This document shows positions 9,136-54,679 of a stretch of DNA of 64,000 bases, piece by piece. A program made the translations under genes and the position numbers. Position 1 is the stretch's first letter. Every line of letters begins with the position of its first letter. Source of the DNA: Bacteroidales bacterium (GTDB lineage Bacteria; Bacteroidota; Bacteroidia; Bacteroidales; UBA3824); the NCBI GenBank assembly GCA_016293845.1, contig JAEDDH010000004.1, forward strand, positions 142,084-206,083. The letters run 5' to 3'. Under the pieces are notes generated by a model. That model did not search any database. It was given only the letters and a program-made list of their open reading frames with translations, and was not told where the DNA came from.

Positions 9136-9171
9136 TGCAATAGTTTATCATTACACCTTATATAATAGTAA

Positions 9172-29915: not shown

Positions 29916-32600
29916 ATGGAAAACGACAAAACAAGGAGTCACAAACTAAACACTATTAGATGGAAAGTCGTAATGTCGGCATCGATTGCCGCTATACTGC
30001 TGTGCGCCGCTGTGTTGTTTGTATTTCACAAAGTTGTAGACCAAAAGCTGTCGGATTACAGTCGACAAAAAAGCAATATCACCACCGATAAATATACTGT
30101 GTTTTTTGAAAAACAACTTAACACCACAATATTCAACCTCAACGCTCAAGCCAATGCTCTTTCGGCTCTTATTCAGCAGACTGGAAATGCAGCAAGAGAC
30201 ATTTCGGTGAGCACTCTGTCGTTGTATCTACAAAAAGATCAGACCATAAAATCTATTTTTATAATTTCCGAGCCATATATTCTCACCAATAGCGACAGCC
30301 TGTTGGTAAACACAAATCCCGGATTTCCTATTGGATGGTATGGCAAAATTACACGTCACGAAAACACCGACACTCCCGAAATCACCAACGATTTACTCGC
30401 CACATCCACAGAGGTTTACGACCTTTATCGCGATACCAAGCACGACCTTGCGTCAAAAATTCTCGCTCTCGACATCGACGGTGAAATCACAAACACGTTA
30501 GTATGCCTTATTCCGTTTTTTCACAAAGATAAATTTGCCGGTGTAATTGGTGCCGACATCGACCTAAAATATTATCGAAACATACTCGACGAGCTGATTC
30601 CATCAGACCAATACGTAATTATCGCCGACAAAAACGGCAAAATATTCTACTCGCGCAAAAAAGAATTTCAAAACCACTATATAACAGAAACTCTGCGTTT
30701 TACCGAGGAACAATACAATATTATGGAAAAAACCAGCGAAAATCTTTCTGCCGATATTGAAACCAACCTTGCCGAAAACGACAACCAAAGCGTTTATATT
30801 CACAACAAACGCATCTCGATACCGTCCACCAACGATTTTTTTGCGCAAATTACTATCACCCCATCCATATCGCTCAAAACCGACCAATTAAAAGCAGAAG
30901 GTTCGGCGGTAATAATTTCGTTGTTGCTGCTCACTATCTTTATTATAGCAGTAATAATTATTTCGGGATACATAACCAAACCCCTCACCGCTCTCCGCGA
31001 TATTGTTAAACAAATAGCCGGAGGAAATTTTGAAATAGAGACATGGTCAAACTCTCAAGCATTGCACACAACCGAATTTGATTCGATATTGCGGTCGCTC
31101 CACTGGCTCACCAACTCACTAAAACAAACTGCCGAATTTGCATCCGACATTCGTGATGGCAACTTAGACGCAGAATATAAGGTATCTATAAAAAATAATG
31201 CTATAGGCACAGCCCTTGTTTCGATGCGCGACAGTATGATAGAGACTCGCGAAAAAGAACAAAAACGTATTGCCGAAGAAAAACGCACCCAGTGGGCTAC
31301 CGAAGGTCACTCTATATTTAGTGATATTCTGCGAAACAGCGTTTCAGACATTCACAAGCTTAGCAACGCCGTTATCGACAACCTTGTACCTTATATTAAT
31401 GTAAACCAAGGCGGTATCTTTATCCGCACCAAAGACCCCAACGATCAAGAAAAAGAAATACTTGAACTATATGGAGTGTTTGCATTTGGACACGAGAGGT
31501 TTCACAAGCGCACCTTGCAGTTAGACGAAGGTCTTATAGGTGCCTGTGCAATGGAAAAACACACTATTGTGCTCAACAATGTGCCCGACAACTATGCTGA
31601 CATCAGTTCGGGACTTGGCAAGGCTAAGCCCAAAGCCATAATGTTTGTACCCCTTGTCTACAACGATACTCTTTATGGTGTAATGGAATTTGCATCGTTT
31701 AAAGAATTTGAACAATATCAAATATCATTTGTGGAGCGTATTTCTGAAAACGTGGCTTCGACCATTGCCAACGCAAAAATCAACGAACAGACAGCCGAGC
31801 TGCTTCAACAGTCGCGTCTGCAATCAAAACAGATGGAAGAAAAAGAAGCCAACCTCCGCAGCGAAATCGAAACCCTTACAAGTCTTGTAGAAACATCTCA
31901 ATACGAACTATCGCAAATAGAAAAAACTCAATATGCCCTCAACCGCACCATTATGAGCGCAGTATTTAGTATCAAAGGCGAAACTCTCGATGCCAACCGA
32001 AAATTCTGTTTACGTTACACATTGGATGTCAACGATATAAAGCGCAAAAACATCTACGAAATTTTGCAATTGACCCTTGCTAAATACGATGACTTTAAGC
32101 GTGTTTGGGACAGCGTTAAGCAGGGCAGCACCGAAACCTACGTTTCTGAATTTAAAATCAACAATTCGATTCGTAAGATCAAAAACATACTTGTGCCCAT
32201 CTACAATTCTGACAACTCAGTAGAAAAAATACTCTGCCTTGCATTCGACGTTACCACACAGCTCAACACCGAAGAAGAACTCGCCAAAATACAAAAGCAA
32301 TACACATCGGTAAGCGAAGAATCTAAAAACATGAAAAAAAAGATCAAGCAGTTTACCGAAGATATCGAACAGCTTAACCGCGAACTTACTGATTCTAAGC
32401 GTCAGAATGTAGAAAACCGTCAAAAATTTGACAAGGCATCTGCGTCAGAAGCATTCTTCAAGCGCGAACTCGAAAAACGCATCACCAAGTTCCGCAAAAT
32501 TGAAGCTAACCTCAAAACCAAAGTTAAAAACCTTGAAACTCAATTAGAAAGCTACACCAAAAACAACAACGACGAAAACAATAAGAATATCACTCAATAA
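29916..32600 (+). CDS. Membrane sensor: Cache-like domain, TM, HAMP, GAF, PAS-like domain, coiled coil (no enzymatic output domain)
   Basis: The periplasmic part resembles a Cache domain ([14 protein letters not shown]...[12 protein letters not shown]). It is followed by HAMP ([20 protein letters not shown]) and GAF ([25 protein letters not shown]...[16 protein letters not shown]). Next comes a ~110-aa PAS-like segment and then a long coiled coil. The stop overlaps the next ATG (TAATG). Confidence 0.7.
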
Positions 32601-33286
32601 TGAAAAAAATATTTTTCTATATTATCATTGTAACGCTCAGTATACTACCAAATATTACAAAGGCGCAAACATTCGACTATCAGAACATTCTGAAGTTTGC
32701 CCACTATGTATATTGGCCGGAGCTCCAACAAGGCACAGGTCTTAGACTTGCCATATCTAAAAAACTTGTAGAACTACTCAGCGGCAAAATGTGGGTAGAA
32801 AGCGAAGAAGGCAAAGGCAGCACATTCTTCTTTACCCTTCCTTACGACCCCGAGCTCAACACAGCCGACAAATACGGAGCATCAGGCTCGTCGGACGATG
32901 CCGAAGTTACCCTCAATGGTAAAAAAATAATGGTGGCCGAAGACGAAGAAATAAACCGTATGCTAATGAACGAAATTCTTGCCGAAACAGGCGCAGAGAT
33001 AATTTGGGCAGAAGACGGCGGACAAGCTGTGGAAATAGCAAACAGCAGAACAGACATCGACCTGATACTCATGGATATAAAGAAGCCTGTGATGGACGGT
33101 TACGAAGCCACACGTGCCATTCGTGAGTTCAACAAAGATATTATTATTATAGCGCAAACCGCCTACGCCCTTAGCGACGAAAAAGAAAAAACCATTAAGG
33201 CAGGTTGCAACTACTATCTTACCAAACCGCTCAACATCAGCCTTTTGATGAAAGTGCTTGGCGGATTCTTAAAAAAGAAGAGTTGA
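32600..33286 (+). CDS. Chimeric ORF: signal peptide/YfiR(DUF4154)-like N-terminus joined to the last ~40 aa of an HATPase_c domain plus an intact receiver (REC) domain
   Basis: [23 protein letters not shown]...[15 protein letters not shown] looks like the start of a YfiR/DUF4154 protein. From about nt 32730 it continues as [38 protein letters not shown], the G2 box to the end of a histidine-kinase ATPase. REC follows (MVAEDEE...[13 protein letters not shown]...YLTKP). No HisKA, N-box or G1-box is present. Confidence 0.6.
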
Positions 33287-36200
33287 GCAAGACAGATATA
33301 TTTGTAGGACGCGAAAAAGAACTCCACCGTATGCACAACCTCTACGAGCAGGTGTGCAACGGTAAGGGGCAAATTGTGCTCATAGGTGGCAAATCGGGAT
33401 GCGGCAAATCGGCTTTGGCAAAAATGTTTGCACAGAAAACCGCCGCGGTTTCTATGTGCACCACTATATCGTTCAAATGCCGTTGTGCAAGCGAGGCATT
33501 ATCGTATGGTATGCTTTACCACACACTTACGCAGCATAAGCCATCCAAAGAGCAGCGCGACAGCTTTGCTAAGTATTCGCCCGACGAAGCTGCAGACTTT
33601 TTTTTCAAATATCTGCAAGATAGTTCGTCAGAGAATCCAACAATAATCATCGCCGACGATTTTCAACACTGCAATCCCGACATTTACAATATGATATACG
33701 CTCTTGCACAGCATATTGTAAGCAATAATTGCAAAATAATGGCTGTGGTGGCGTACAATATGGCAGATCAGGTTATCAAGGCAGACCCACTCATCAACCG
33801 CATCTCGCGCGACCTGTTTCCAATAAAAATAGGCAGCATCACCCAAGCATGGAAAACAGGAGGATTTTGCGAACTCGTTCCCGAGCCGTTGAAACTATCT
33901 GACACAGCCGACATGATATCCACAATGTTTACTGGCAACGAGTTTCCGTCAGACACTGCCAACATAATTCATTCTGTTACACAGGGCAATCCCGCATTTC
34001 TTACAGGTTTGCTCAAATATATGCAGCAAAACGGCGACATCAAGCAAATAGACGGCAGATGGATAATTGATAATCTGAACTTCTATTCAAACGCTAATCA
34101 TTTGCAAGACGTTTTGCCTAAGCCTATTGCACATTCAAAATACCGTTACACCGCCATCAAGGAAAACGGAATTGGCAATCCAAAAGAATTGTTAGACAAG
34201 ACGATAGCAGCAGTACAAAAGCCATCAATGCCCGAGGCTGTGAAACTCGCCGACAAAACTTGGAATGCTTTAGCTCATTACCGCTCGTCGGAAGCCGTTT
34301 GGGAATACCGCGCCACCTCATTACAAGCCAAATACCTTGCCCTATCATGGCTCGGATATCACAAAGAGGCTCTCGAATGTGGAACGGCATTGCTCGGCTG
34401 TTCAAAAAAATTAGACAACAAATACTACTTAGTGGCAGGCTATTACTTTGTAGGTCAAGAATATCTGTACCTTTCAGATCACGACAAGGCTATAAAATAC
34501 ATACAAAAAGCAATCGACTATCTTAAAGAAAACCCAAAACATCCCGCATTAGCCGACTGCTACTATGCTTTGGGCAAGGTGTACCTCACCCGAAACAACC
34601 ATACTTCTACAGACTATTTTTTGAATCTCGCGCTCAAAGGTTTCACCGAAAAAAAAGACGAAGACAAGCTTGCTCTGGTGAAAATAGACCTTGCCACGCA
34701 CAAACGTTCTGGCAAAGACAATGCAAGTGCATATTTGCTGCTCAAGGAGGTGATAGACTATTGCACCAAAGCCGTTAAGCCGCACATTCTTGCCAAGGCG
34801 TATATCAACCTCGGACTATCTTACGACAACGACAACCGTTTTGCCGAAGCAAAAAAATACTACACAGAGGCTCTCAGGCTATGTTTCCACACTGGCGACC
34901 GCATCAACCTTGCCAACTGCTACAACAATATGGGTCTGTCGAAAAACTCTCAGAGCAAATTTACAGAAGCGTTGGCATACTTTCACAAAGCATTGGAAAT
35001 CGACCGTATGCTTGGCAATACTGCCAAGATATCAATAAGTTACAACAACATAGGTCTTGCGCTGCTCAACAACGGCGACATCAACGGTGCCGAAAAATAT
35101 TTCAACGCCGCATTAGAAAATGATTCAAATGCGCCCAATAAGTATGGCATTGCATTAACATACAGCAATTTAGGTGCACTATATTCGCAAAAATCCGACA
35201 CCGAGAATGCTCTTCGTTACTACAAATTAGCCCTCAAAGAAGACCACGCCAACAACTATATTGAAGGAATGATAGCCGACTACAACGCTATTGGCAACAT
35301 TCATTACGGCAACGAAAATATAGAAGAAGCAATACAGTGCTTCAACAAATCGCTTGAACTGTCGCAGCAAAGCAACGACGAAGCTGCTCTTGCTGCTGTA
35401 TGCAACAATATTGGAAACATATATTTTGCTCAAAAAGACAACGAAAACGCCACACAGTATTACACCGAGGCACTCAACATAAACACTCGCATCGGCTACA
35501 ACGCCGCCGCTGCGCTCAACTACTCTAACCTCGCCAACATCTACGAAGAGCAAAACAATGCCGCACGTGCCGAAACCTATTACGACCAAGCCATTGAATT
35601 ATATCACAAAGCGAAACTCAAGGATCAAGAAGCCTACAATCTGAGTTCGCTTGCTATGCTCTATTATCGCAACAACAAATACAACAAAGCCAAAGTTACA
35701 TACCTTCACGCCGCCAAACTATACAAAAACATCAACAACACAAAGGAATACATCCGCATGATTACCTTTGCCGGCGACTCTATGCGTATGCTATCCGAAT
35801 ACAAAGAAGCTCAAAAACTTGTAGAAGAAGCAATAGAGTTGAGCCGAAATTTAGGCGACACCCACTCCGAGGCTCTTGCCGATGGCACTATGGCTTGTTT
35901 GTATACCGAAATGTACGAATATGAATGTGCCGTAGATTATTACAAAAAGGCAATAGAACTATACCGAAACGACAACGACCTTGAAATGTACGCTGATATG
36001 CTGTCGGCACTTGCCTACCTACACAACGACAACGGAAACACTGACGAGGCTCTGTTATGTCAGCATCAGGTAATCGACACCTACCGACAAATTGGCAACA
36101 CCGAACTGTTAGCGGCTTCGTATGCCGAAATGGGCTTGTTTTACGAAGAAAACAACTACGAACAGTCGGCGGAAAACTACATATTGTCGGCACAACATTA

Positions 36201-37692
36201 CAACATAGCCGACAAACCCGGACGACAAGCCGACGCACTTATACACGCTGCCAACGCGCTTATGCACACACAAAACCGTGGCAAAGGGTACGAATGTCTC
36301 ACCACGGCTGTGGATATTCTGCAAAAGATGAAGCAAGAGCACGGCGAAGAAGTGTCAGAATCCGACATCAACGACAAACTTGTTCAGGCATTCACCGCCA
36401 TTGCCGACTACTTTTTTGAAATCAAAGATTATTTTGCGGCGGTGGCAAATTACACCACAGCATTAGATATCAGCTCAAAGACAGAATCGCACACACGCAC
36501 CGCCTACATCTGCAACAATATCGGATATACTTACGATACAATAGGCTACTTTAATCGCGCTCTCGAATACTACAACAAGGCGTGTCAAGAATACGACCAA
36601 GAAGAATTTAAAAGCGAAGGTCTTTTCAACAACCTTAAAAACGTGGCTCTTATGTACGAGCGTTTAGGCAACGACCAAAAAACTACAGAGTATTACCGCA
36701 AGGCTTTCGACACTTTTGAAAACAAATTTCACATAGATATTTCCGCACTTGCTGGCTGCGCTCTTTCGGCTGCCAACGCTATTTTTAATTCAAATGGCGA
36801 CATCGAAACTGCCACACAATACTATCAAAAGGCACTTCACCTTTACAAAAAAGACGACAACAACAAAGGAATCATCAATACATTGCTTAGCAGAGCGATT
36901 TCCAACGCTATTGGAAATCGCAACAGTGAAGCCTTATCGCTTGCAAGTCAGATTATGCGCATATTTGACATTGCTTCTGACATCGAAACCAAATGCAATG
37001 CACTCCGCGCTGTGGCTCAGATACATATCAAACTCGGAAACTTAAACGATGCGGTAAAATATTATCAACAGGCATTAGACATACTGTTTGCCCGTGACCT
37101 TTGGGATGCAGCCGCACACCAATATTATAACATGGCAACGCTTTTTGCCGAACACTGTGGCAAGATGGCGGCTACTATCGATTTCAACGGTAGCACGCTA
37201 ACTATCTACAATTTCATTTCTAAATTGATGTCAAATGCTGTGGAACTCGCCAAAACCGAAAAAGACATCGAACTTGAAATACAGGTGCTTTCGTCGCAAG
37301 CAAGGTATAATGTGCAGTGCAACGAAAAAAATCTCGGACTTGAATATATGACCAAGGCAGTGGAAGTGGCAGGTGGTACTGGCGACCCCGAAACCGAAGC
37401 CGCTACCCTATTAGAAATGGCCGACTTTCTTATGCACTACTATAGACACTTTGACGGAGCCGAGCAATGCATCAACCGTGCTATTTATAATTTAGAACCT
37501 TTAGGAAATTATCATATTAACTTAGCGTTGGCCCGTGTACTTAAATTCGTAGCGCTTGTTTTTCAACAAAAATACGACGAGGCTGGCAGTATATTCAAAT
37601 TATATTCACAACTATTTGCAGGTTACATAAAAAACATACCCATGCTACTACCTGCACTACAAGAGTTTCACAACAATTACAGCCCTAAATAG
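33283..37692 (+). CDS. STAND-like P-loop NTPase (AAA_16-type) followed by ~1200 aa of TPR repeats
   Basis: FVGREKEL...[18 protein letters not shown] (Walker A) and IIIADDFQH (Walker B) are present. TPR-type repeats then run to the C-terminus. There is no ATG upstream of the FVGRE motif. Candidate starts are TTG 33283 (TTGA overlap with the REC stop) and TTG 33205, so the start is uncertain. Confidence 0.8.
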
Positions 37693-38308
37693 TTTGCAAT
37701 ATCATCGCACCAAGTTGATCTGCTGAGTCTGCCACATTGTTGTTTGATGCTAACAATGCTTCGCGTGAATTAAATCCCCACGACACCGAAATAATATCCA
37801 AACCCACTTTGCGGCAGGCCTCAATATCACGTATTTCGTCGCCGACATATAATATAAAGGTGTAGTTTCTATGTAAAAATCTTACTGCACGCCTTAGAGC
37901 ACGGCTTTTGCCAAACAATGGAACGTTGGTCTTAATATAGCAAAAATAGCTATCTAACGCATTATTAGTTAAAAACTTACCAACAGTTTCGGCAGAATTT
38001 GTGGATAATATACCCACATCGCAATGCTGCGAAAGTTGCCGCACCATTTCTACCACTCCATTAAAAGGTTTAATTTCATCGGCACGTTTGGAAGACTCTC
38101 TGCGAAAGAATCGCACAAGGCGTGGTATCTGCCACCATTTTACACCCGAAAGTTTTACCAACTGACGTGCCGAATGGTCTTTGTGCTTGGCAAAATCTAT
38201 CTTACTATAGCCAAATTGTTCGGCAAACTGGTTGATAAGTCTTGCCCCCGACTCAAAAGTATCGGCAAGAGTGCCATCAAAATCAAACAAAACAATAGAA
38301 GACTGCAT
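37685..38308 (-). CDS. HAD-superfamily hydrolase (phosphoglycolate-phosphatase-like)
   Basis: Motif I is VLFDFDGTLADT, with ILSTNS and a late VGDEIRD motif. Start set to ATG 38308 (MQSSIVLFDFDG), 1 nt after the stop of the upstream gene. Confidence 0.8.
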   Translation of the reverse strand: MQSSIVLFDFDGTLADTFESGARLINQFAEQFGYSKIDFAKHKDHSARQLVKLSGVKWWQIPRLVRFFRRESSKRADEIKPFNGVVEMVRQLSQHCDVGILSTNSAETVGKFLTNNALDSYFCYIKTNVPLFGKSRALRRAVRFLHRNYTFILYVGDEIRDIEACRKVGLDIISVSWGFNSREALLASNNNVADSADQLGAMILQTI

Positions 38309-38309
38309 A

Positions 38310-40952
38310 TTAAATAGCACTTCGCGACACAGTTTCGGTGGCGGTTCCGTTTGCAAAAATAATGTCTACATCCTCGTTGAAATTGCCAATGGCTATCATA
38401 TTGCCCACGTTGCTCATAGTTATAAGTTTTGGGAAATACATCATAAAAATCTCGCGACCTTTTTCGGATGTAGAAGAATTGTAAAATCTAAGTTTGCGGT
38501 CGGCACCGAGCACCGAAAAGAATTGCGAATCGCTGCTAATCTTGATGTCGATAACTTCGCAGTCGATATTAAATTCGGCAACAGGTATCGGTATCTGAGG
38601 ATTATACACACACACACGACCATCTTTGAATCCATAAATAAGCCTTGTGGCATCAGAGTTTACCGACATCGACTTGATTTCTGACGAGCTTTCGATGCCG
38701 AGTTTAAAAATCTCCGATAGAGCGTTGATACGGTAAATCTTCAAGTTGTGAAAATAGTCGTAGCCAGCCACATACTGCATATCACGCGAAACCGACATCA
38801 GCCTAAAGTCGGCAATAGCCTTGTTGATCACCTTGGTTCTGATGTCAACCTTATAGAGCGAAAAGTTGTCGCTTACAAAGAGGGTCTCGTTGTTAAACGG
38901 GTGGAAAAACATCTTTTTGATAGTGCCGGTGTAGTTTATAATATCGGAGAAAAGGCTGAAACCACCTGTAGATACGTTCATTACACGCAAGAAACTCTGT
39001 CCGCCCACAGCCATAAATTTATTGTTGCGGCTAAATGCCATAGCAGTGGCGTTAACATCTTGTTTATGAATAGTTTCCCACGATGAAGTATCAAATACAC
39101 GAAGTTTTCGGCTCTGATCGGCAATAGCGATATACTCATCGTTGAAACTGAAGCATATATCTGTAACACCCTCATGCGCTATCTTGATATTTCGTGTATT
39201 GAATCCTTTAAACTGATTGTCAGCGTTTTTGCCCTCGTCTTGTTTTTGTTTTATAATCATAACACGGGCAGTTTGATTGCCAAGCGAAGCCGACTGTTGC
39301 AAATATTCGTTGTAGCCCGATTTGTCGCCAATTTTTTCGTACACTCCGGCAAGGGTAAGCAATACGTCTTCGGGATGGGCAATCTTGTGCGAAATTGCAT
39401 ATTTGAAATACTCAATTGCCTTGGGATAACGGCTAAGCATAAGGCTTGCCACAGCCGCATTGTAATAAGCGTCTGGATTATCGGGATTCAATTTGATAAC
39501 GGTTTCGCAGTCTTCGATGGCGAGTTCCAACTTGCCGAGATTGCCGTATGCAGTGCTTCGACGGAGATAAGCAAGTTGGAAAGTTGGGTCGATGGCAATC
39601 ACCTTGTTGCAACAGTCGAGCAAAAAATCCCATTTTTCAAGATTGTGGCATTCGTTCATCTTAGCCACAAGTTCCACAATATTTTTTTTCTCCACAGAAC
39701 GGGGATCAGAAAACACAGGTTCGGGAGCAGGTTGCGGCTCAGGCTCAGAAGCGGGTTCTGGAGTAGGCTCAGGAGCGGGTTGAGGCTCAAGTTCGGGTTC
39801 AGGATCGGGCAACGGCTCGTCGATAGTGTTCATAAAGTGGGGATTTGGATTCTCTCCGGAGTCGGTAATTTCGGGGGTTTCTTGCTGGATTTCCATTTCT
39901 GATGATGTTTCTTCTATTGTATCGATTTCTTCTTCGGTTTTTGAATCTTCATCTTGATTTGTGATTTCTTCGGGCTCTGGTTCCTCCATGGGTTCAGGAA
40001 TTCCGAGATAGTTTTCGCGGTAACGCTCTTGGCGGAGTTGTAAGCAGCGGTCGTAGGTCCACATATCCAAAGGCTGAATATTGTCCACTGTATTGAACTT
40101 TTGCAGCACGGTGTCGTCGCCAATAATTTCGTAAATAGTCTGAGCAATATATTTGCAGCAACTAATAGGCTGTTTTACAATTTGTTCCTCGGCAAAACGG
40201 ACAATAAACCATCCAGCCTTTTCAAAAAAAGTATCGTGTTCTTGCTTAGAAAACTCGCAGCTATCCTTCTTCACAAATGTAGTGGGTTCGCCCGACTCCA
40301 TATCATAAGGAGAATCAATTTCTACATCAATATAAAGTTTTTTGTCGGAAACCGAAACAATATAAGTAGGCACAAAACCTTTACTATCAAGACTTTGCAA
40401 AATAGTGTAATTAATAAGCACCTTGTCGGGAAAATATTCGTTGAGTATTTTGTAAAAATCATCGTTGCACCCAACGCCACATTCGTCGGCAGGTTTCAGT
40501 TGACAATTGGTAAACTGCAAAGCGTCAGCAACTTTAACACTACGAAAACGGGCAAGAGAAGCACGGTCGTTGTTTTGACGGTTGGCCTCATCAATGGCGG
40601 CAAGTTCGTCGTTGTAACCACGCATCAGGTATTCGTAGTTGGCAAGCGCCTTTTGATTCGAAAGTTTTTTCAACCGGTTGAGAATGCAGTCGTATACAGC
40701 CAAACCAACAGAAGCCACCAAAAAAACAGTGAGCAAAGCTGTTAGCCAAGTGAAAGCAGGCAGAGGGCAAAACTTGTATCCTGCCACTAATCCTACAGCC
40801 ACTGCGGATAATACAAATCCTGTGTAACGCATTTTGGCAAGCGTTGGACGTTGGGGCATTATGGGTGAAACGGGCACGGGGATACGACTGTCCTGCGCCT
40901 CTAAAATATTACGCGGAATTATACTTGCTGGATATTGAGTGTAATTGTACAT
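38310..40952 (-). CDS. Large membrane-anchored protein: 2 TM, restriction-endonuclease-fold-like domain, Pro/Glu-rich linker, TPR repeats, WD40-like beta-propeller
   Basis: Two TM helices lie near residues 45-95. LYIDVEIDSPY...DTFFEKAGWFIVRFAEEQI fits the DUF559/DUF2726-type pattern (hhhEhDG...D..L...GW.hhRF). The PEPEPELEPQPAPEPTPEPASEPEPQPAPEP linker is encoded at about 39700-39830. TPR-like repeats follow (AYLRRSTAYGNLGKLELAIEDCETVIKLNPDNPDAYYN). About 290 C-terminal residues have WD40-like periodicity. Domain calls are by eye. Confidence 0.6.
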   Translation of the reverse strand: MYNYTQYPASIIPRNILEAQDSRIPVPVSPIMPQRPTLAKMRYTGFVLSAVAVGLVAGYKFCPLPAFTWLTALLTVFLVASVGLAVYDCILNRLKKLSNQKALANYEYLMRGYNDELAAIDEANRQNNDRASLARFRSVKVADALQFTNCQLKPADECGVGCNDDFYKILNEYFPDKVLINYTILQSLDSKGFVPTYIVSVSDKKLYIDVEIDSPYDMESGEPTTFVKKDSCEFSKQEHDTFFEKAGWFIVRFAEEQIVKQPISCCKYIAQTIYEIIGDDTVLQKFNTVDNIQPLDMWTYDRCLQLRQERYRENYLGIPEPMEEPEPEEITNQDEDSKTEEEIDTIEETSSEMEIQQETPEITDSGENPNPHFMNTIDEPLPDPEPELEPQPAPEPTPEPASEPEPQPAPEPVFSDPRSVEKKNIVELVAKMNECHNLEKWDFLLDCCNKVIAIDPTFQLAYLRRSTAYGNLGKLELAIEDCETVIKLNPDNPDAYYNAAVASLMLSRYPKAIEYFKYAISHKIAHPEDVLLTLAGVYEKIGDKSGYNEYLQQSASLGNQTARVMIIKQKQDEGKNADNQFKGFNTRNIKIAHEGVTDICFSFNDEYIAIADQSRKLRVFDTSSWETIHKQDVNATAMAFSRNNKFMAVGGQSFLRVMNVSTGGFSLFSDIINYTGTIKKMFFHPFNNETLFVSDNFSLYKVDIRTKVINKAIADFRLMSVSRDMQYVAGYDYFHNLKIYRINALSEIFKLGIESSSEIKSMSVNSDATRLIYGFKDGRVCVYNPQIPIPVAEFNIDCEVIDIKISSDSQFFSVLGADRKLRFYNSSTSEKGREIFMMYFPKLITMSNVGNMIAIGNFNEDVDIIFANGTATETVSRSAI

Positions 40953-41030
40953 AACATAAAAATAATTTCTTTAGTAAAATTGTAAACATAATTTGTGCCA
41001 CGAGTTATTGGTAAAATCATTTTTTTAGTT

Positions 41031-41038
41031 TATCTTTG
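41031..41038 (+). promoter_or_regulatory. Bacteroidota -7 promoter box (TATCTTTG)
   Basis: Matches TAnnTTTG, 36 nt upstream of ATG 41075. Confidence 0.4.
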
Positions 41039-41074
41039 TTTTCGAAAATTGCATAACCTTTTAAACACCATTAT

Positions 41075-43294
41075 ATGAAAAAAGTACTTTTGGGAATGTT
41101 TATAACCCTCGGAGTGGTGGCACTCCTTGTAGGGGGTTTTATCGGATACCACAAACTATTCAGAAAGACTGTCAACATCAACGCTTTTTCAGCCGTGCCG
41201 AGCGATGCCGCATTCGTTATCGAAACCGAAAACCTATCCAAGGCGTGGTCTACTCTCAGCGGAAGCGCTCTGTGGCAATACCTTAAATCAACAGAATATT
41301 TTGCCGACATCAACGCAGATATCCAAACTGTGGACTGGTTTCTCAACAACAACAAAGCCGTTGACAAGATTCTCTCAGACCGAAAACTATTGGTTGTTGG
41401 CTGTATGCCCAACGACCGCAACTGGGATCTGGTATACCTCATCGACCTTCAAGAGTTTGCAGAATATTTCCCCGAAATCAAAGCGTCGCTAAAACTTGTA
41501 AAAGGTTTCAAATTTCTTGAATCACAGATTGAAACCAACGAAGGCAAATACAACATCTACACCCTCCGCGACATTGAAGACCCTACTTTCGACATCAATA
41601 TCTCATTAATAAACAACATCTTAGCCATAAGTCTCGACAAAAGTCTTGTAGAGCGTGTTATCCGTCACCACAATACTCAATTCTGGGACAACAACCTCAA
41701 TTTCAAGGTGGTAACCTCAGGACTCTCCAATAGAAAAATGTTCAAGGCGTATGTCAACTACAAACTTATCCCCAGACTTTACTCAATATACTCCACCGAC
41801 CCGAGTGATGTGATGGATATGCTCGGAGCATCGTTGGCATATACAGCCGCCGAAATCAACTTAGACAACGACCAAATACACTTAGACGGTTTCACAAGTC
41901 TCGACAGTGTATATTCATATATCAGGGCATTTTCAAATGTAACACCCGGCAAATCGCGTTCTTTTGAAATAATGTCTGACCAAACAGCATTGTATTTATC
42001 GTTGAATTTCAGCGACTTCATGCGTTTTTACTCCGCACTTATGGACGAATACGCCAAGGGCAACCCCGCCGAAGTAAAAACTATGGAAACTGATATCAAA
42101 ATAGTAGAAAAATTGCTTGGATTTAGTCTCAAAGATGATTTCTTAGGCTGGATAGGCTCCGAAATTGCTATTTGCAAACTCCGTCCGCTAAGCGAAAAAT
42201 CACGCGACATCGACGGTGTTGTGTTCGTAAACGCTTCCGACATCAAACGCGCCAAAGAATCTCTTGGTAAGATAGTTACGCATCTCAACCGACGCACACC
42301 TGTAAAATTCAAAATTGAGCCTTACCGCAATTTCGACATCCAATACCTCGGCATTAAGGGCATTTTCAAAATGTTCCTCGGTAAACTGTTCAAGGATATC
42401 GAAAAGCCATTCTTCACCTACATCGAAGACTACGTGGTGTTTGCCAATTCGCAAGAATCTATCCATCAGATAATCGACGACTATCTGCAAGGCCGCACTC
42501 TCAACAAAAACCCCAAGTTTGCCGACTTCAAAGACCAATTTGACATCAAGACAAACATTTCGCTCTTTGTGCAAACTCCCAAAATGTACGAAACCCTCCA
42601 CAAATACTCTCCCGCCGAAGACCGCAAGAGTTTGGAGGAGAATAAGAACCTTATTTGCTCATTTGCCCGCGTGGGTTTCCAATTGGTCAACGATGCAGGA
42701 CTTTTCCGCTCGTCGTTCGCCATCCAATACGACAGCACCGCAGCCGCAGCCGACTCGCTTCAAATGTTTGAATCATTAGCCGAAAACTCATTGGAAATGA
42801 AAGACTTAAATTCACTCGACTTTAAAGCCGCATTAACCGAAGATATGGATTTCGACGACGGAGCAGCCAAAATCAATTACGACAGCACCGAAAACATCCA
42901 CTACGAAGGCAATATCGAAGACGGTAGAATTGAAGGCATTTGGCGCACCTATTATCCATCGGGAAATCTCTATGCCACAGCCAATTATCACAAAGGAAAA
43001 CTCGACGGCATAGCATATTTCTATCACGACAACGCCCGTCAGGTAAAAATGGCCGAGGCAGAATACGATAGCGATGTTCTCGACGGCACTTACACCGAAT
43101 TTTATACCAACGGCAAGGTGAAAGCCCGCATAATGTACGAAGACGGCGTTCGTCACGGCGAAACCGTTTTCTTCTACGACAACGGCAACATAAAAATGCA
43201 AAGCAAATACAAAAAAGGCAAACGCAGCGGAAAATCAACCGTTTACGACCAAAATGGCAAAAAACTCGGTCGCCTTGATATTGACACCTATTAA
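41075..43294 (+). CDS. Membrane-anchored protein, DUF3352-like body with C-terminal MORN/YwqK-type repeats
   Basis: N-terminal TM anchor and a large region without motifs I can name (it resembles Bacteroidota DUF3352 proteins). The C-terminal ~130 aa hold repeated Y..G.....A.Y..GK.DG units (YYPSGNLYATANYHKGKLDG, FYTNGKVKARIMYEDGVRHG, FYDNGNIKMQSKYKKGKRSG). Confidence 0.55.
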   Translation: MKKVLLGMFITLGVVALLVGGFIGYHKLFRKTVNINAFSAVPSDAAFVIETENLSKAWSTLSGSALWQYLKSTEYFADINADIQTVDWFLNNNKAVDKILSDRKLLVVGCMPNDRNWDLVYLIDLQEFAEYFPEIKASLKLVKGFKFLESQIETNEGKYNIYTLRDIEDPTFDINISLINNILAISLDKSLVERVIRHHNTQFWDNNLNFKVVTSGLSNRKMFKAYVNYKLIPRLYSIYSTDPSDVMDMLGASLAYTAAEINLDNDQIHLDGFTSLDSVYSYIRAFSNVTPGKSRSFEIMSDQTALYLSLNFSDFMRFYSALMDEYAKGNPAEVKTMETDIKIVEKLLGFSLKDDFLGWIGSEIAICKLRPLSEKSRDIDGVVFVNASDIKRAKESLGKIVTHLNRRTPVKFKIEPYRNFDIQYLGIKGIFKMFLGKLFKDIEKPFFTYIEDYVVFANSQESIHQIIDDYLQGRTLNKNPKFADFKDQFDIKTNISLFVQTPKMYETLHKYSPAEDRKSLEENKNLICSFARVGFQLVNDAGLFRSSFAIQYDSTAAAADSLQMFESLAENSLEMKDLNSLDFKAALTEDMDFDDGAAKINYDSTENIHYEGNIEDGRIEGIWRTYYPSGNLYATANYHKGKLDGIAYFYHDNARQVKMAEAEYDSDVLDGTYTEFYTNGKVKARIMYEDGVRHGETVFFYDNGNIKMQSKYKKGKRSGKSTVYDQNGKKLGRLDIDTY

Positions 43295-43306
43295 TATATA
43301 GCAAAA

Positions 43307-43561
43307 ATGTTTTTAAAAGTTTTTTTAGTAGTATTAGTAATATTGGCGCTGTGCTTTCTTGGTCTCGGCGTGCAGACGTTTTTCTCTAAGAAGAAAAAAT
43401 TCCCCGACTACGAGGTAGGGCACAACAAAGAAATGCGCAAACGCGGCATCTACTGTATGCGCACCCAACAGAAGATTATCGACAAAGAATTGATAAAAAA
43501 ACGCTTAGAAGGCGGCTGCGACGGCTGCGAATTGATAAAGGAGCATAATAAGGAGGAATAA
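43307..43561 (+). CDS. Small membrane protein (84 aa)
   Basis: ATG 12 nt after the preceding stop. It has one N-terminal TM helix followed by a basic, Cys-containing tail. Confidence 0.5.
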   Translation: MFLKVFLVVLVILALCFLGLGVQTFFSKKKKFPDYEVGHNKEMRKRGIYCMRTQQKIIDKELIKKRLEGGCDGCELIKEHNKEE

Positions 43562-43662
43562 TTCGGTTTAAAATAATTTTGCCGTGCGGCGAAAAACTAT
43601 TATATTTACCGCAAAATATGCGGTGAATAGTTTAATTATTTGCCGCAATAAAGAGAAAAGGT

Positions 43663-44253
43663 ATGTACATTTGGCAAGAAAAAGCATTTCCAAACTTTGA
43701 ATGGAACAAAGAGAACGTATTACAGAGGCTTTCTGATGCTAAATTCGAAATTGGAAAACTTGCGGGAATGATGGGTGCGTTGGGTTCTGAAATAAAAAAA
43801 TCAGCCGCACTTGATTCGATCACAGCAGATATTCTGATGTCGTCGGCAATAGAGGGCATTATGCTCAATCGCGACGACGTTCGCTCGTCGGTGGCTTGGC
43901 AATTGGGTATCGACAAAGCGGGAGTGCCAGTGTCAAACAGATATATCGAAGGTGTAGTAGAAGTAATGTTTGATGCAGTGAGCAATTACAACGTTCCGTT
44001 AACAAGCAACCGATTGTTCAAATGGCATACATTACTTTTCCCTTCGGTAAAAAGTTACGAAAAAATCACCGTTGGCGCTTACCGCAATAGCAGTCAAACG
44101 ATGCAAGTGGTTTCGGGACGTTACGGCAGCGAAAAAATCCACTACGAAGCGCCATCGTCGGCACAAGTGCCTGAAATGATGGATGTTTTATTAAAATATA
44201 TAGAAACTGCCAAAGTAGACGGCATATTAAAAGCCGCGATAGCGCACCTCTGA
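43663..44253 (+). pseudogene. Truncated Fic/DOC-family gene (DUF4172 N-terminal region only; catalytic Fic motif missing)
   Basis: MYIWQEKAFPNFEWNKE...SSAIEGI...AAIAHL* matches the N-terminal half of DUF4172-Fic proteins. It stops exactly where HPFxDGNGR normally follows (AIAHLWF..HPF). Downstream sequence is antisense to the rluA-like gene, so the 3' half has been deleted. Confidence 0.7.
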
Positions 44254-44269
44254 AAAAGAGCGATAACCG

Positions 44270-44950
44270 CTATTTTACACACTCCTCAAAATACCCCCAC
44301 AACTTGTCGCCCTCGGGCACGGGAGCGGTAACGTTGATTTCATTTTTACTCACGGGGTGGATAAATTCTACCTTGCGGGCGTGGAGCGAAAGTCCGCCGT
44401 CGGGATTTGAACGCGGATAGCCATATTTCAAATCGCCCTTTATGGGACAGTTGATGGCTGCTAACTGACAGCGTATCTGATGGTGGCGACCTGTGAGGAG
44501 GTTTATCTCCCAAAGATAATACCGGTCTGATTTTGAGATGATACGGTATTTAAGGATAGCTTTTTTAGCCTCTTTTGTCTCTTTGGGCGCGATAAAACTT
44601 TTGTTGAGTTTCTCGTTTTTTTGGATAAAGTTTTCGAGCGTGCCCTCGGTCTCTTTTGGACAGTTGGCAGTGATAGCCCAATAGGTTTTGTGGATTTCAC
44701 CGTCGCGAAACATAGCGTTGAGACGGCTCAGAGCCTTGCTTGTGCGCGCAAAAACCACAATACCCGATGTGGGACGGTCTAAGCGGTGGGCAAGACCAAG
44801 AAACACATCGCCAGGCTTGTTGTATTTTACTTTAATGTATTGTTTTACAGAGTCGATGAGGGTCGTATCGCCAGTTTTGTCGCCTTGCACAATTTCGTTT
44901 ACCGTTTTCGACACTATTATTATATGATTATCTTCGTAGAGTACTTGCAT
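44270..44950 (-). CDS. RluA-family pseudouridine synthase
   Basis: 226 aa with the catalytic motif HRLDRPTSGIVVFART and RluA-type HQIRCQL. Confidence 0.9.
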   Translation of the reverse strand: MQVLYEDNHIIIVSKTVNEIVQGDKTGDTTLIDSVKQYIKVKYNKPGDVFLGLAHRLDRPTSGIVVFARTSKALSRLNAMFRDGEIHKTYWAITANCPKETEGTLENFIQKNEKLNKSFIAPKETKEAKKAILKYRIISKSDRYYLWEINLLTGRHHQIRCQLAAINCPIKGDLKYGYPRSNPDGGLSLHARKVEFIHPVSKNEINVTAPVPEGDKLWGYFEECVK

Positions 44951-44951
44951 A

Positions 44952-45188
44952 TTAAGCCACTTTTTCGCCGTGTTCTAATAAATATTCAGGAGCAATGTCC
45001 GCACCATTAGACCAAAAAATAGTATCCAAAAGTCCGAATTGCACAAACATTTTTTCATCTTTCAATTCCTCAAAGGCGGGATATTTTAACAGAGGGGCAA
45101 AATCCATCTTGCGTTTTTCGCCATTGTTGAATCCGCAGAGCAAAGTATGTCCGCCCAAGTATTCCACATTAGTAACTTTCAGTATCAT
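44952..45188 (-). CDS. DUF2442 domain protein
   Basis: 78 aa. MILKVTNVEYLGGHTLLCGFNNGEKRKMDF...FWSNGADIAPEYL has the DUF2442 pattern. It starts 2 nt after the DUF4160 gene stop. Confidence 0.7.
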   Translation of the reverse strand: MILKVTNVEYLGGHTLLCGFNNGEKRKMDFAPLLKYPAFEELKDEKMFVQFGLLDTIFWSNGADIAPEYLLEHGEKVA

Positions 45189-45190
45189 AA

Positions 45191-45442
45191 TTATTTAATT
45201 TTATTTATTTTACCTCCCTTTTGAGCAATCTCCCAAAGTTCAAGGAGTTCTTGTTGGTGTTCGTCTATAAACTGATTTACAATAGCAATAGTTTTAGAAT
45301 GAGCCTTACCTTCAACAATACGGTCTTGAATAGTAATAGTAAACTCATCATCGGCACCGCTACGTATATGAATATGCGGTGGATTATGGTCAAAACCATA
45401 GATATAAATCAAAATACCGTTGATAATAAAAATCGAGCCCAT
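45191..45442 (-). CDS. DUF4160 domain protein
   Basis: 83 aa containing the characteristic IYGFDHNPPHIHI motif. Confidence 0.75.
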   Translation of the reverse strand: MGSIFIINGILIYIYGFDHNPPHIHIRSGADDEFTITIQDRIVEGKAHSKTIAIVNQFIDEHQQELLELWEIAQKGGKINKIK

Positions 45443-45570
45443 ATTTTAACTTTAAAACTATTGGCAAAGGTACAAATATTATTTTACAGACGACAAATAA
45501 ACGATGAGAATATTGCAACAATAAGAGAAAGCTTCAACAAAAAATGGACACATAGAGAGGTTGAATTGCG

Positions 45571-51684: not shown

Positions 51685-53274
51685 ATGGGAATTTACGTAA
51701 ATCCGGGCAACGAACTTATGCAAGACGCTCTCAATTCAATGATTTATGTTGATAAATCATTAATAGTAAGAGAGTTGAATAAGATGATTGGTACACGTCA
51801 AAAGTATGTCTGCGTGTCGCGTCCGAGGCGTTTCGGCAAATCGATGGCTAAGGCATTACTTATGGCTTACTATTCCCGAGGCTGTAAGTCGCACCGTCAA
51901 TTCAAGAACTTGAAAATAGCCCAGGAACCGAGTTATAGAAAATATCTCAACAAATTGAATGTCATTGCGATAGATTGCGTTGACTTTTCATCGAACCTGT
52001 TTAAAACAAGCAAGGATAGTTTTGTAAACAGGATGACTGAAAAGATTAAGAGGGAATTTGTTGAAGAATTTTCTGATGTTGATTTCTCTGATTGTCAAAG
52101 TATTGCTGATTGCATCAAAATCGTTTATAAAAAAACAGGTGTAAAGTTTGTAATACTCATTGATGAATACGATTTGCCGATACGCATCGAACAGCCTGAA
52201 TCTCTTTTTAAAGAGTATCTTAATTTGTTGCTTTCATTGTTCAAAAGCGAGGCTACAAGTCAGGCGACGGCTCTTGCCTACATTACTGGTATATTGCCGA
52301 TTGTTCGCGATAGGGTAGAGAGCAAACTTAACAATTTTAGGGAATATACATTTCTCGAACCGGCTAATTTTGCCGAGTTTACAGGGTTTACAGAACAAGA
52401 GGTGCAGGGACTTTGCGACAAATACAATGTCAATTATCAGGAATGTCTCAATTGGTACGACGGTTACGATGTAGAAGGCATTAACATTTGCAATCCTCAC
52501 GCAATAGTCGAGAGTATTACATATAAAAAGTTAAAGCCATTTTGGTCTAATACAGGTACTTACGAAACCATTGCGCCATACATAAAAGGCAACTATCAAG
52601 GCATCAAAGACGACCTGATTAAAATGCTTTCAGGCGGCAGTGTTCCGGTTAACATAACTTCATTTGCCAACACGCTTTCCGACATAACTTCTAAGGACAA
52701 ATTGTTTACGTACCTGATGCACACGGGTTTTCTCGCCTACAATCTCGATGAAAAAACCTGTCGTATGCCAAACCTCGAAACTCAGGACATTTGGGGCAAC
52801 GCTTTGGAAAATACCGAGTCGTTCAAAGTTTTGGGCGAGTTCATCAAAAACTCGGAACGTCTTCTCAAAGCCACACTTGCAAAAGATGGCGAAACTGTTG
52901 CAAATGCCTTGGAAGTGCTTCACGGCGAGGTAACGTCGCATTTGAGTTACAACCACGAACAATCGTTGCAGTCGGCGATTGACATTGCGTATATGCACGC
53001 AAAGACATATTATCGGATTTTCAACGAAGTTCCGACGGGCAACGGCGTTGCAGACGTGGTTTTGGTGCCGCTGTATCCCAATTGGCCCGCAATAATCATC
53101 GAACTAAAACGCAACTCGTCCACCGAGTCCGCCCTCAACCAAATCAGCGAAAAGAAATATTCTGCGCGGCTCAACGATTATAACGGACGCCTACTTTTCG
53201 TCGGAATTAACTACGATGAAAAGAAAAAGCACACTTGCGAGATAGTGGAGGTGGAAAAGAATGGTGGCTGTTAG
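51685..53274 (+). CDS. AAA-ATPase_like + PD-(D/E)XK (DUF1703-type) protein
   Basis: IYVDKSLIVRELNK...VCVSRPRRFGKSMA is the hallmark N-terminus of the predicted AAA-ATPase family common in Bacteroides. The C-terminal ADVVLVP...IIIELKRN has a D...ExK nuclease-like motif. Confidence 0.8.
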   Translation: MGIYVNPGNELMQDALNSMIYVDKSLIVRELNKMIGTRQKYVCVSRPRRFGKSMAKALLMAYYSRGCKSHRQFKNLKIAQEPSYRKYLNKLNVIAIDCVDFSSNLFKTSKDSFVNRMTEKIKREFVEEFSDVDFSDCQSIADCIKIVYKKTGVKFVILIDEYDLPIRIEQPESLFKEYLNLLLSLFKSEATSQATALAYITGILPIVRDRVESKLNNFREYTFLEPANFAEFTGFTEQEVQGLCDKYNVNYQECLNWYDGYDVEGINICNPHAIVESITYKKLKPFWSNTGTYETIAPYIKGNYQGIKDDLIKMLSGGSVPVNITSFANTLSDITSKDKLFTYLMHTGFLAYNLDEKTCRMPNLETQDIWGNALENTESFKVLGEFIKNSERLLKATLAKDGETVANALEVLHGEVTSHLSYNHEQSLQSAIDIAYMHAKTYYRIFNEVPTGNGVADVVLVPLYPNWPAIIIELKRNSSTESALNQISEKKYSARLNDYNGRLLFVGINYDEKKKHTCEIVEVEKNGGC

Positions 53275-53347: not shown

Positions 53348-54679
53348 TCATATTTTTAATAAATTAGAATTGCTTTGTTTGAATATGTCGTTTATTTGTG
53401 CATTACTAAATCCAGTCAATGATAAAACACAGCAAATTAGTAAAATTCTTAATTTGTTAGTAAGGTGGTATAGTTCATAACCCACTAAAACAATTTCACT
53501 ACTCTTTGGTGCATAAAAATGGGAGTAATAGTCCCTTGAATTAACGCAGGCTCGAATACATATATTAGCATTTTGGATTATTTCAATATTTGAAAATTCA
53601 AACAGTAGTTCGCCTATTTTATCTTTTAACGCTACTCTATTCTTGGCGTTCAAATTATTATTACGCTTATATGTATCTTCTCTAAATCGGCTCCAAAAGC
53701 CATCAAGTGCTTGAATAACAATTAAAAAATCAACGCTACTAAATGAACGTTTTCGTTCCAAACTATCAATTAAGTGTGTTCTAATTGGAGTAATTTCTTT
53801 TGGAGCGTTGTACCATTCTTTTAGAATCTGGGAATAGTAATTTTGTATAGTAGAGTAACTGTACAAAAAGTCAATAGAATTTATTTCTTTTGCCTTTATC
53901 TCTTTGAAATTTCTGCGAGATTGGACTATGTAAATTGGTTTATAGCGTTTTACATTATCTACATCTTGATATAGATTACTGTCGAACACTTTAATACAAG
54001 AACTTTTTACAATATTTGATGTTGCAACAGAAAGAAATTGTTCAAACATTAAAATATCTGATAACAATTCGCTAATTGAACAAGGCGAATTTTTCGAAAT
54101 ATCAATGGATACAAATTGCTTTATGTTGATTTCTTTTTGGCTTTTAGAGTACGAAATTTCTTGTAAAAGAGAAATGCTTGTTGTATCATTTATTGCAGTC
54201 TTGTTCAAAAGACATTTTTCTTTGCCGTTGGTTTGAAATGAAATATTAGTATTTTCATTTCCTGTTGAAAAAGATATTGCATTGTTAGGGCACCAATCGG
54301 ACAATTCAGGTATGATAGCATTAGCCCAATAGTTACACTTTTCGTCTAATCCCTTAATATGCTTACCAATAATCATATATTTGCAGATGTATTCTACAAT
54401 AGCAAAACCCGCTGTCCAATTGAAATTTGCTTTTTTAAAGACCTGTAATAATGTTATATCTTTTGAGTCAGAAGTGCGACCATATATAACAATGTCGTTT
54501 GTCTTTTTATCAAAAAACTGTTCCAATGGATGTCCAAAACTTCCGATGAGTTTTAACACAATTTTATCTTCTGGATAATATGTAAGTATTCCAGCAACAA
54601 GATTATCAGGCTGTTCTGGCAAGTACCAATAACCTTCGAATACTAATTGAGAACTCAAATTCAAAGCATCCATAATCAA
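53348..54679 (-). CDS. ApeA-like protein: ApeA_NTD1-like N-terminus and C-terminal HEPN (R-x4-H) motif
   Basis: The N-terminus FEGYWYLPEQPDNLVAGILTYYPEDKIVLKLIGSFG fits the ApeA N-terminal pattern (G.WWLP.....V.G.L......I.LEL.G.F). The C-terminal part has NSRDYYSH (R-x4-H). The gene is conspicuously AT-rich compared with its flanks. Family assignment is from memory. Confidence 0.5.
   Translation of the reverse strand: MIMDALNLSSQLVFEGYWYLPEQPDNLVAGILTYYPEDKIVLKLIGSFGHPLEQFFDKKTNDIVIYGRTSDSKDITLLQVFKKANFNWTAGFAIVEYICKYMIIGKHIKGLDEKCNYWANAIIPELSDWCPNNAISFSTGNENTNISFQTNGKEKCLLNKTAINDTTSISLLQEISYSKSQKEINIKQFVSIDISKNSPCSISELLSDILMFEQFLSVATSNIVKSSCIKVFDSNLYQDVDNVKRYKPIYIVQSRRNFKEIKAKEINSIDFLYSYSTIQNYYSQILKEWYNAPKEITPIRTHLIDSLERKRSFSSVDFLIVIQALDGFWSRFREDTYKRNNNLNAKNRVALKDKIGELLFEFSNIEIIQNANICIRACVNSRDYYSHFYAPKSSEIVLVGYELYHLTNKLRILLICCVLSLTGFSNAQINDIFKQSNSNLLKI

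Follow-up and report, generated by a model that had tools for sequence, protein, structure and literature searches.

The gene under study is an 880-codon open reading frame (ORF), followed by its stop codon, on the reverse strand of a 64,000-nucleotide stretch (hereafter the window) of contig JAEDDH010000004.1, which belongs to a Bacteroidales bacterium. Its product, the target, is in our estimation, with confidence and doubt about evenly balanced, a cytoplasmic scaffold that is anchored in the inner membrane and occurs only in a group of uncultured gut Bacteroidales. Comparison with its relatives shows that in the Bacteroidales an N-terminal module with a putative nuclease-like domain has been joined to a half made of TPR repeats and WD40 propeller by a highly acidic and apparently disordered linker, and that the hallmark polar residues of the domain were lost after this fusion. 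According to the scaffold reading, the nuclease-derived domain would no longer cut nucleic acid and would act as a binding or oligomerisation module, possibly one that still binds DNA via a surface in which R252, K267 and 'RFAEEQ' are retained; at least one conserved protein of the cell would be docked at the membrane by the TPR and WD40 parts, the linker might either space the modules or mimic DNA in an autoinhibitory manner, and the HAD phosphatase encoded next to the target, putatively coupled to it in translation, would take part in the same process, being either recruited by the scaffold or acting on the same substrate. Read from the N-terminus, the target consists of a tail, a two-helix membrane hairpin, a helical stalk, a DUF559-like domain, an acidic Pro/Glu linker, TPR repeats and a WD40 propeller. 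The order of the domains and the length of 880 residues had been given by the original prediction, which a model made from the DNA letters, and both agree with the ORF list and with 16 full-length homologues (46-99% identity, from metagenomes and from metagenome-assembled genomes (MAGs) labelled Bacteroidales), which also establish that the gene is genuine; the nearest GTDB genome is that of a Bacteroidales MAG from yak omasum (98% identity).

Fold and active-site residues of the nuclease-like domain

The first 316 residues of the target align over their full length, at 25-37% identity, with an uncurated family of ~310-residue membrane-anchored DUF559-like proteins of Cyanobacteria and Bacteroidota, which GenBank and RefSeq label 'hypothetical protein'. 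The shared N-terminal unit comprises a YP-x-I-x-IP peptide (the YP..I.IP start of the target's tail recurs in the stand-alone relatives), a hydrophobic hairpin, a stalk, and a domain ending in an invariant S-C-C-K; a hydrophobic segment occupies the equivalent N-terminal position in 95 of 101 stand-alone relatives, and the residues that mark the family, E211, D213, P215, Y216, W248, F253, Q257 and C265-C266, are all present in the target. When GTDB genomes were searched with tblastn, proteins of Nostoc, Microcoleus, Calothrix, Chitinophagales, Cytophagales and others covered query positions 1-316, and an exhaustive HMMER search with a profile of ten homologues returned 1,863 cluster representatives (clusters at 50% identity) at E<=1e-3 and 1,325 at E<=1e-10, mostly of 300-350 residues and matched over ~95-310, with stand-alone members reaching E values down to 1e-41. 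By these counts the parent family is a large and unannotated one of ~1,900 clusters, without a Pfam or NCBIfam model or a known role; a search of NCBIfam with stand-alone relatives assigned them to no family and gave one weak SLATT_4 match (E 0.047) at one hairpin region.

A single clade of the PD-(D/E)XK superfamily unites DUF559, Vsr and DUF2726 (PMC3424549, group 58), and a DUF559/DUF2726 pattern had been recognised by the original prediction in the motifs LYIDVEID (residues 206-213) and AGWFIVRF (246-253). Of this claim the kinship with DUF559 was upheld, by way of intermediate homologues and a structural model, but it was not accompanied by any direct profile match, and the DUF2726 part fell away, as that profile matched neither the target nor 41 relatives nor the family consensus. 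Residues 1-430 of the target had no match in Pfam, NCBIfam, PADLOC or PDB profiles, a Pfam search of residues 96-318 returned neither DUF559 nor any other family even at E<=10, a profile of the ten closest homologues found nothing among PDB sequences, and searches of PDB sequences with profile and consensus gave nothing or mere membrane and coiled-coil noise. The gathering score of the DUF559 profile PF04480 (20.6 bits), which the target does not reach, was exceeded by relative P0041 (24.3 bits) and by the family consensus (24.9 bits); 32 of the 41 relatives matched DUF559 weakly (E<=0.1), and six matched REase_MTES_1575. Alignment by hhalign with a canonical DUF559 protein placed PDF, E-x-D, H, D..R and V-x-RF in register (E 0.003). 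An AlphaFold2 model of residues 140-320, built on a 132-sequence alignment, reached a pLDDT of 94.9 and a pTM of 0.90, and its helices (165-173 and 237-245) and strands (182-184, 197-201, 206-213 and 249-254) follow the alpha-beta-beta-beta-alpha-beta core topology of the restriction-endonuclease-like fold; a first AlphaFold run with a 10-sequence alignment gave a pLDDT of 58 and was left out of the fold search. A Vsr/DUF559 restriction-endonuclease-like fold is thus supported only indirectly for the target domain, through transitive homology and a confident model, with no direct match of the target itself.

For a residue census, all retrieved relatives were aligned to the domain HMM (hidden Markov model) and the columns read off, among them 137 relatives without TPR-WD40 (Table 1). 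Six polar residues conserved at 90% or above in the family (the helix-1 Glu, the PD Asp, E214, His225, D236 and R239) are all replaced in the target. Of the DUF559/Vsr hallmark residues the target retains E211, D213 and R252, while T196, T225, K236 and H239 replace D, H, D and R. In Vsr, Asp51 of the PD motif binds the metal, and catalysis also requires a His that comes after it. The closest homologues of the target have N/T at position 196, S/A/T/V at 214, T/A/S at 225, a variable residue at 236 and H at 239. Among other TPR-WD40 lineages, P0032, P0066 and P0080 keep D196 and have A209, K/I/V214, D/N225, F236 and S/E/I239, and P0200 has N196, A209, F211 and N225. The full set is intact in fusions to TPR-LRR (P0067), to TPR only (P0024) and to a UvrD helicase (P0047), as it is in P0041 and P0136, which are SF1 helicase and ParA-like ATPase fusions. 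Because hallmark residues have been lost, and in different subsets from lineage to lineage, which points to relaxed selection on catalysis, the domain of the target is most likely a pseudo-nuclease. Its identity of 66-74% among close homologues indicates that the domain as a whole is still constrained by purifying selection. The replacement of six hallmark residues tells against the endonuclease of the original prediction on a point, the absence of catalytic residues, that it had itself named as decisive.

Table 1. Conserved positions of the nuclease-like domain in the relatives and in the target
Position	Relatives	Target
163 (helix-1 Glu)	at least 90% Glu in 132-row alignment	N
196 (Asp of 'PD')	D in 133/137	T
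209	D in 131/137	D, kept
211	E in 137/137	E, kept
213	D in 136/137	D, kept
214	E in 134/137	S
225	H in 133/137	T
236	D or E in 131/137	K
239	R in 132/137	H

Anatomy of the protein and its HAD partner

Coordinates of the gene, of the parts of its product and of the adjoining elements are collected in Table 2. Across the fused family the N-terminal tail does not vary at Y7, P8, P13, I24, P25, P30, P33 and P36. The two transmembrane helices originally predicted correspond to hydrophobic segments at residues ~46-64 and 66-92 (hydropathy windows >1.65 at 46-64 and 61-94), with basic residues on both sides of the hairpin (K40 and R42; R93, K95, K96 and K101). Because these basic residues accord with the positive-inside rule, and because a UvrD helicase follows the same hairpin in relative P0047, both hairpin ends, and with them the nuclease-like domain, linker, TPR and propeller, are predicted to face the cytoplasm. 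The stalk appears as long helices of low confidence in the shallow-alignment AlphaFold model and shows a conserved pattern of Y106, Y113, E122, N127 and R137. The vicinal cysteines C265-C266 of the S-C-C-K motif (codons at window positions 40155-40160) are located in a helix past the last core strand; they are invariant in the fused clade and present in 136 and 131, respectively, of the 137 stand-alone relatives, and we know of no counterpart in DUF559/Vsr.

The linker with its P-E/A/Q repeats is present and acidic as had been proposed, but is ~99 residues long, not ~70. It contains 26 Glu and 22 Pro, and its repeat at residues ~379-413 has a counterpart in the DNA, a 12/24-nt repeat at 39716-39789; across homologues its length ranges from 73 to 259 residues and its net charge from -8 to -37, always acidic, with neither sequence nor length conserved. 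The TPR repeats and the C-terminal WD40-like propeller of the original prediction both score above Pfam cut-offs, with TPR_1 at 51.4 bits (cut-off 27.8), TPR_17 at 45.5 (24.4), TPR_2 at 39.4 (27) and also TPR_16 and TPR_11 above theirs, all within residues 437-520, and with PF00400 at 39.2 bits (cut-off 27) and propeller families spanning residues 552-871. Among close homologues the TPR/WD40 part is the slowest-evolving region of the protein, at 83-89% identity. In a search with the TPR-WD40 half alone it was never found on another N-terminus; only members of the same architecture and generic TPR proteins were returned, which gives no sign of swapping of this module.

Table 2. The target gene, the parts of its product and the adjoining elements in the window
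Feature	Position	Strand	Evidence
Whole target gene	38310..40952	-	ORF list; full-length homologues, 46-99% identity
Residues 1-45, cytoplasmic N-terminal tail (predicted), conserved motif YP-x-x-I-I-P ... IPVP-x-x-P-x-x-P-x-RP	40818..40952	-	Invariant residues; shared with stand-alone relatives
Residues 46-92, two hydrophobic helices as membrane hairpin, both ends predicted cytoplasmic	40677..40817	-	Hydropathy; flanking basic residues
Residues 93-160, helical stalk, possible coiled coil	40473..40676	-	Low-confidence shallow-alignment model; conserved residue pattern
Residues 161-316, putative DUF559/Vsr-like restriction-endonuclease-fold domain, degenerate active site, C-terminal helical extension with SCCK	40005..40472	-	HMMER; DUF559 matches of relatives; hhalign; AlphaFold2; residue census
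Residues 317-415, disordered acidic Pro/Glu linker, net charge -31	39708..40004	-	Composition; charge; DNA repeat
Residues 416-572, TPR repeats and helical connector	39237..39707	-	Pfam TPR families above cut-off, residues 437-520
Residues 573-880, WD40-type beta-propeller	38313..39236	-	PF00400; several beta-propeller families over 552-871
HAD-IA phosphatase gene, 207 aa, putatively in one operon with the target, starts 1 nt past target stop	37685..38308	-	HAD_2 match; motifs; adjacency in other lineages
122-bp divergent intergenic region, presumed promoter of target-HAD pair and edge of divergent block	40953..41074	.	Sequence; identity break against L001/L011

One base separates the stop codon of the target (TAA, 38312-38310) from the ATG of the HAD gene (38308), as had been noticed originally. 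The neighbour matches HAD_2 (PF13419, 104.9 bits, E 7e-30) and contains DFDGT, an intact DxDGT, and GDEIRD, so that both the profile and the motifs of HAD-IA phosphatases (DxDx(T/V) and GDxxxD) are found in it. No NCBIfam equivalog was reached, the best being phosphoglycolate-phosphatase-like (PRK13225, 122.9 against a cut-off of 368). The pairing itself, whose conservation it had been proposed to examine, is kept in 6 of 7 lineages spanning 24-98% identity, the HAD gene lying next downstream of the orthologue at 1-5 nt or past one inserted gene. The gap is 1-5 nt in the clade of the window and in lineages P0009, P0080 and P0066/P0181; a single gene for a ~307-residue signal-peptide protein, without a Pfam match, sits between the two in lineages P0015, P0016 and L015 (L004 8468-9394, L005 11230-12150, L015 ~8421-9341). 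The identity of the HAD protein declines from 93% to 52% as that of the target declines from 98% to 24-30%, which indicates a long-standing linkage of the two genes.

The architecture was found only in about ten species-level Bacteroidales MAGs, from the gut of yak, goat, cattle and horse, and a ubiquitous core gene of known function, which according to the original prediction would have told against it, was rejected on account of this confinement. Within the group the gene is single-copy and its order is conserved across deep Bacteroidales lineages. In five of these an actin-like ALP_N gene (330-349 aa) lies upstream of the orthologue in divergent orientation, with an ADP-ribosylglycohydrolase gene in between in four of the five (L004 3430-5433; L005 5876-7857; L006 3897-5861; L092 4654-5646). 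The ALP_N proteins are 81-91% identical between lineages, as compared to only 24-50% for the target family across the same lineages. A search of the 64-kb window for ALP_N, ADP-ribosylglycohydrolase and 307-aa signal-peptide genes found none, and in the clade of the window a DUF3352/MORN gene takes the upstream place of ALP_N. The other neighbours of the orthologues are housekeeping genes (nrdD/nrdG, a MiaB-like radical-SAM gene, gpsA and an acyltransferase gene), and for most lineages this syntenic neighbourhood led to the rejection of a defence-island location.

Further genes of the window were noted in passing. Convergent with the HAD gene, and overlapping its 3' end by 8 bp, is a gene (33205-37692, +) for a 1,495-residue STAND-like protein with an AAA_16/ATPase_2 N-terminus and about a dozen TPR_12/TPR_1 repeats; no effector domain is recognisable in it, PADLOC matches it with a generic TPR model only, and the arrangement is kept in the close clade only. 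Next to it, a 228-residue ORF (32600-33286, +) joins a DUF4154-like signal-peptide N-terminus to the end of a HATPase_c domain and a receiver domain. At this position locus L001, from a MAG of the same genus, encodes an entire DUF4154 protein of 172 aa and a hybrid histidine kinase of 761 aa, and the two DNAs align only from codon ~575 of the kinase onward, so that the ORF looks like a deletion chimera. On the other side of the target a DUF4172-only ORF of 196 aa (43663-44253, +) corresponds in L001 to a 361-aa DUF4172+Fic protein, followed there by three more genes, and a ~3.3-kb deletion seems to have truncated the Fic gene. At 53348-54679 (-) an ApeA-type protein with ApeA_NTD1 and an Apea-like HEPN domain is encoded, of a kind linked to anti-phage defence, and an AAA-ATPase_like + PDDEXK_9 gene adjoins it (51685-53274, +).

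Weighing the functional readings

Several points weigh against a non-catalytic scaffold. The role is inferred from domain types, its partner, ligand and activity all being putative; conserved gene order in related genomes is weak evidence of joint function, and the HAD neighbour is absent in the P0200 lineage, the sole exception. A Foldseek search of the PDB with the good model gave no significant match (best E 0.06), with a list suggestively enriched in PD-(D/E)XK proteins (arenavirus cap-snatching endonuclease, Bax1, MunI, FAN1, R2 endonuclease and 3ijm) and a match to the DUF559 structure 3hrl at a TM of 0.57 (target-normalised) and a probability of 0.54. The clustering of the lost residues in space is inferred from sequence register only. 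The target still has D209, E211 and D213, along with H239 and D240, which are conserved specifically in its clade; since catalytic residues can move to other positions in PD-(D/E)XK enzymes (PMC3424549) and those three acidic residues remain, residual or altered catalysis keeps some small probability, activity being judged improbable. The context of intact relatives gives a further hint, of a conflict role: stand-alone proteins of the parent family reside on 44 cyanobacterial plasmids (including loci L090 and L091), 27 of them predicted conjugative, and one intact member (L086 5288-6945) lies beside Cas6, Csx3 and Card1, directly after a canonical DUF559 gene. Among 67 stand-alone relatives at GTDB loci with clustered ORFs, there was no conserved neighbour and none common to more than 12 loci.

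A similar hint of a conflict role comes from the divergence of the locus. The block 32725-41002, which holds the STAND-type NTPase-TPR, HAD and target genes, has only 72-77% DNA identity to MAGs of the same genus (L001/L011), as compared to 94% for the adjoining flank 41073-44252 (DUF3352/MORN, a small ORF and DUF4172) and 92% for 44285-45487 (against L001, L003 and L011). At the protein level the identities across the break are 98% for DUF3352 and 73%, 67% and 74% for the target, HAD and STAND proteins. The breakpoint in similarity falls in the 122-bp intergenic region and is seen in three independent assemblies, which suggests recombination or allelic replacement on one side.

These contexts, both plasmid-borne and CRISPR-associated, and the divergent block are also among the grounds for taking the target as an active membrane-tethered nuclease, that is, an anti-phage or anti-plasmid sensor-effector whose TPR/WD40 part would sense an invader protein and release nuclease or hairpin, with cell death or DNA degradation as the outcome. 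Motif-intact relatives occur as fusions with helicases, either MkoA-like of the SF1 type or GajB-like of the UvrD type, and the window itself contains the convergent STAND-type gene and, farther off, the ApeA-HEPN gene. We nevertheless regard this reading as unlikely, as the hallmark residues are lost in the target and others in sister lineages, the gene is single-copy and keeps a fixed order near nrdD/nrdG, the MiaB-like gene, gpsA and the actin-like gene across deep lineages, and the putative sensor is the very part that evolves slowest and stays with one N-terminus. PADLOC-DB 2.0 assigned no family to the target, to its HAD and DUF3352 neighbours or to any of five stand-alone relatives, and phage genomes, when searched, gave no match. 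The defence or DNA-uptake sensor put forward by the original prediction accordingly finds little in its favour here.

A little less probable again is a nucleic-acid-binding membrane tether, in which the dead DUF559 fold would hold chromosomal or incoming DNA at the inner membrane, the linker would compete for its DNA-binding surface and TPR/WD40 would couple the tether to other machinery. That fold and basic surface motifs (R252, K267 and 'RFAEEQ') are retained under purifying selection would fit such a role, as would the strongly acidic linker of every lineage despite its unconserved sequence, and DNA binding has precedents among inactive PD-(D/E)XK homologues (PMC3424549). However, the DNA binding is putative, the HAD partner is left unexplained, and the conserved neighbourhood contains no competence, segregation or replication gene, ALP_N being absent from the clade of the window. 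More doubtful than this is the proposal that the target and the HAD protein make up a new membrane signalling or immunity module, in which a protein ligand of TPR-WD40 would free the linker from the nuclease-derived domain, the domain would then bind nucleic acid or oligomerise by way of the membrane hairpin to produce a response, and the stand-alone relatives would be new membrane-tethered Vsr-like nucleases in plasmid or phage conflict. Least credible of all is a membrane adaptor that would anchor or regulate an ALP_N filament while the HAD protein and the ADP-ribosylglycohydrolase reverse its modifications: the head-to-head position of ALP_N in five deep lineages, four of them with the intervening ADP-ribosylglycohydrolase gene, is what suggests it, but both genes lie outside the window, whose clade has DUF3352/MORN there, and the divergent orientation and high conservation of ALP_N fit inherited gene order equally well.

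Comparison with known systems

That no described system has this architecture, as the original prediction had it, was borne out by PADLOC, NCBIfam and the literature, in which no combination of hairpin, pseudo-nuclease, acidic linker, TPR, WD40 and HAD partner was found. The target would make a clean case of a nuclease fold turned non-catalytic, its active site eroded lineage by lineage after fusion to docking repeats, and it exposes an unannotated membrane-anchored Vsr/DUF559-like family with many members on conjugative cyanobacterial plasmids. In rumen Bacteroidales the putative scaffold and the HAD phosphatase make up a conserved unit of two genes that is directly testable. It also cautions that motif resemblance alone is insufficient to annotate the target as an endonuclease or a defence gene.

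Conflict-system proteins with TPR/WD40 sensors and nuclease or transmembrane effectors (PMC7159879) are made of the same types of building block that the target unites in one polypeptide; the target, however, is without an NTPase switch, its effector-like domain is degenerate, its repeats are conserved and not variable, and its gene is in most lineages not in a mobile or variable context and has no PADLOC match. The stand-alone ~310-residue proteins end after the domain, keep all hallmark residues, are often plasmid-borne and have no conserved neighbour, whereas the target adds the linker and TPR-WD40, has lost residues and has a fixed HAD partner. With the DUF559 (PF04480)/Vsr clade (1cw0, 3hrl, 3r3p; PMC3424549) the target has the predicted alpha-beta-beta-beta-alpha-beta core in common, and its parent family shares the register PDF ... 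E-x-D ... H ... D..R ... V-x-RF; unlike that clade, it lacks a profile match, the PD Asp, the His and the D..R pair, and adds a membrane hairpin and stalk before the domain, a ~60-residue C-terminal helical extension with the invariant Cys-Cys, and TPR-WD40 after it. The domain of the target thus descends from the DUF559/Vsr clade but lacks two of its three marks (profile score and hallmark residues), and it is therefore not to be annotated as a DUF559 endonuclease. Inactive PD-(D/E)XK modules such as those of RecC and Sen15 (PMC3424549) have no sequence relationship to the target, and membrane anchoring and a TPR-WD40 fusion are undescribed for them, but like the target they represent a fold kept under selection without its catalytic set, within a larger assembly.

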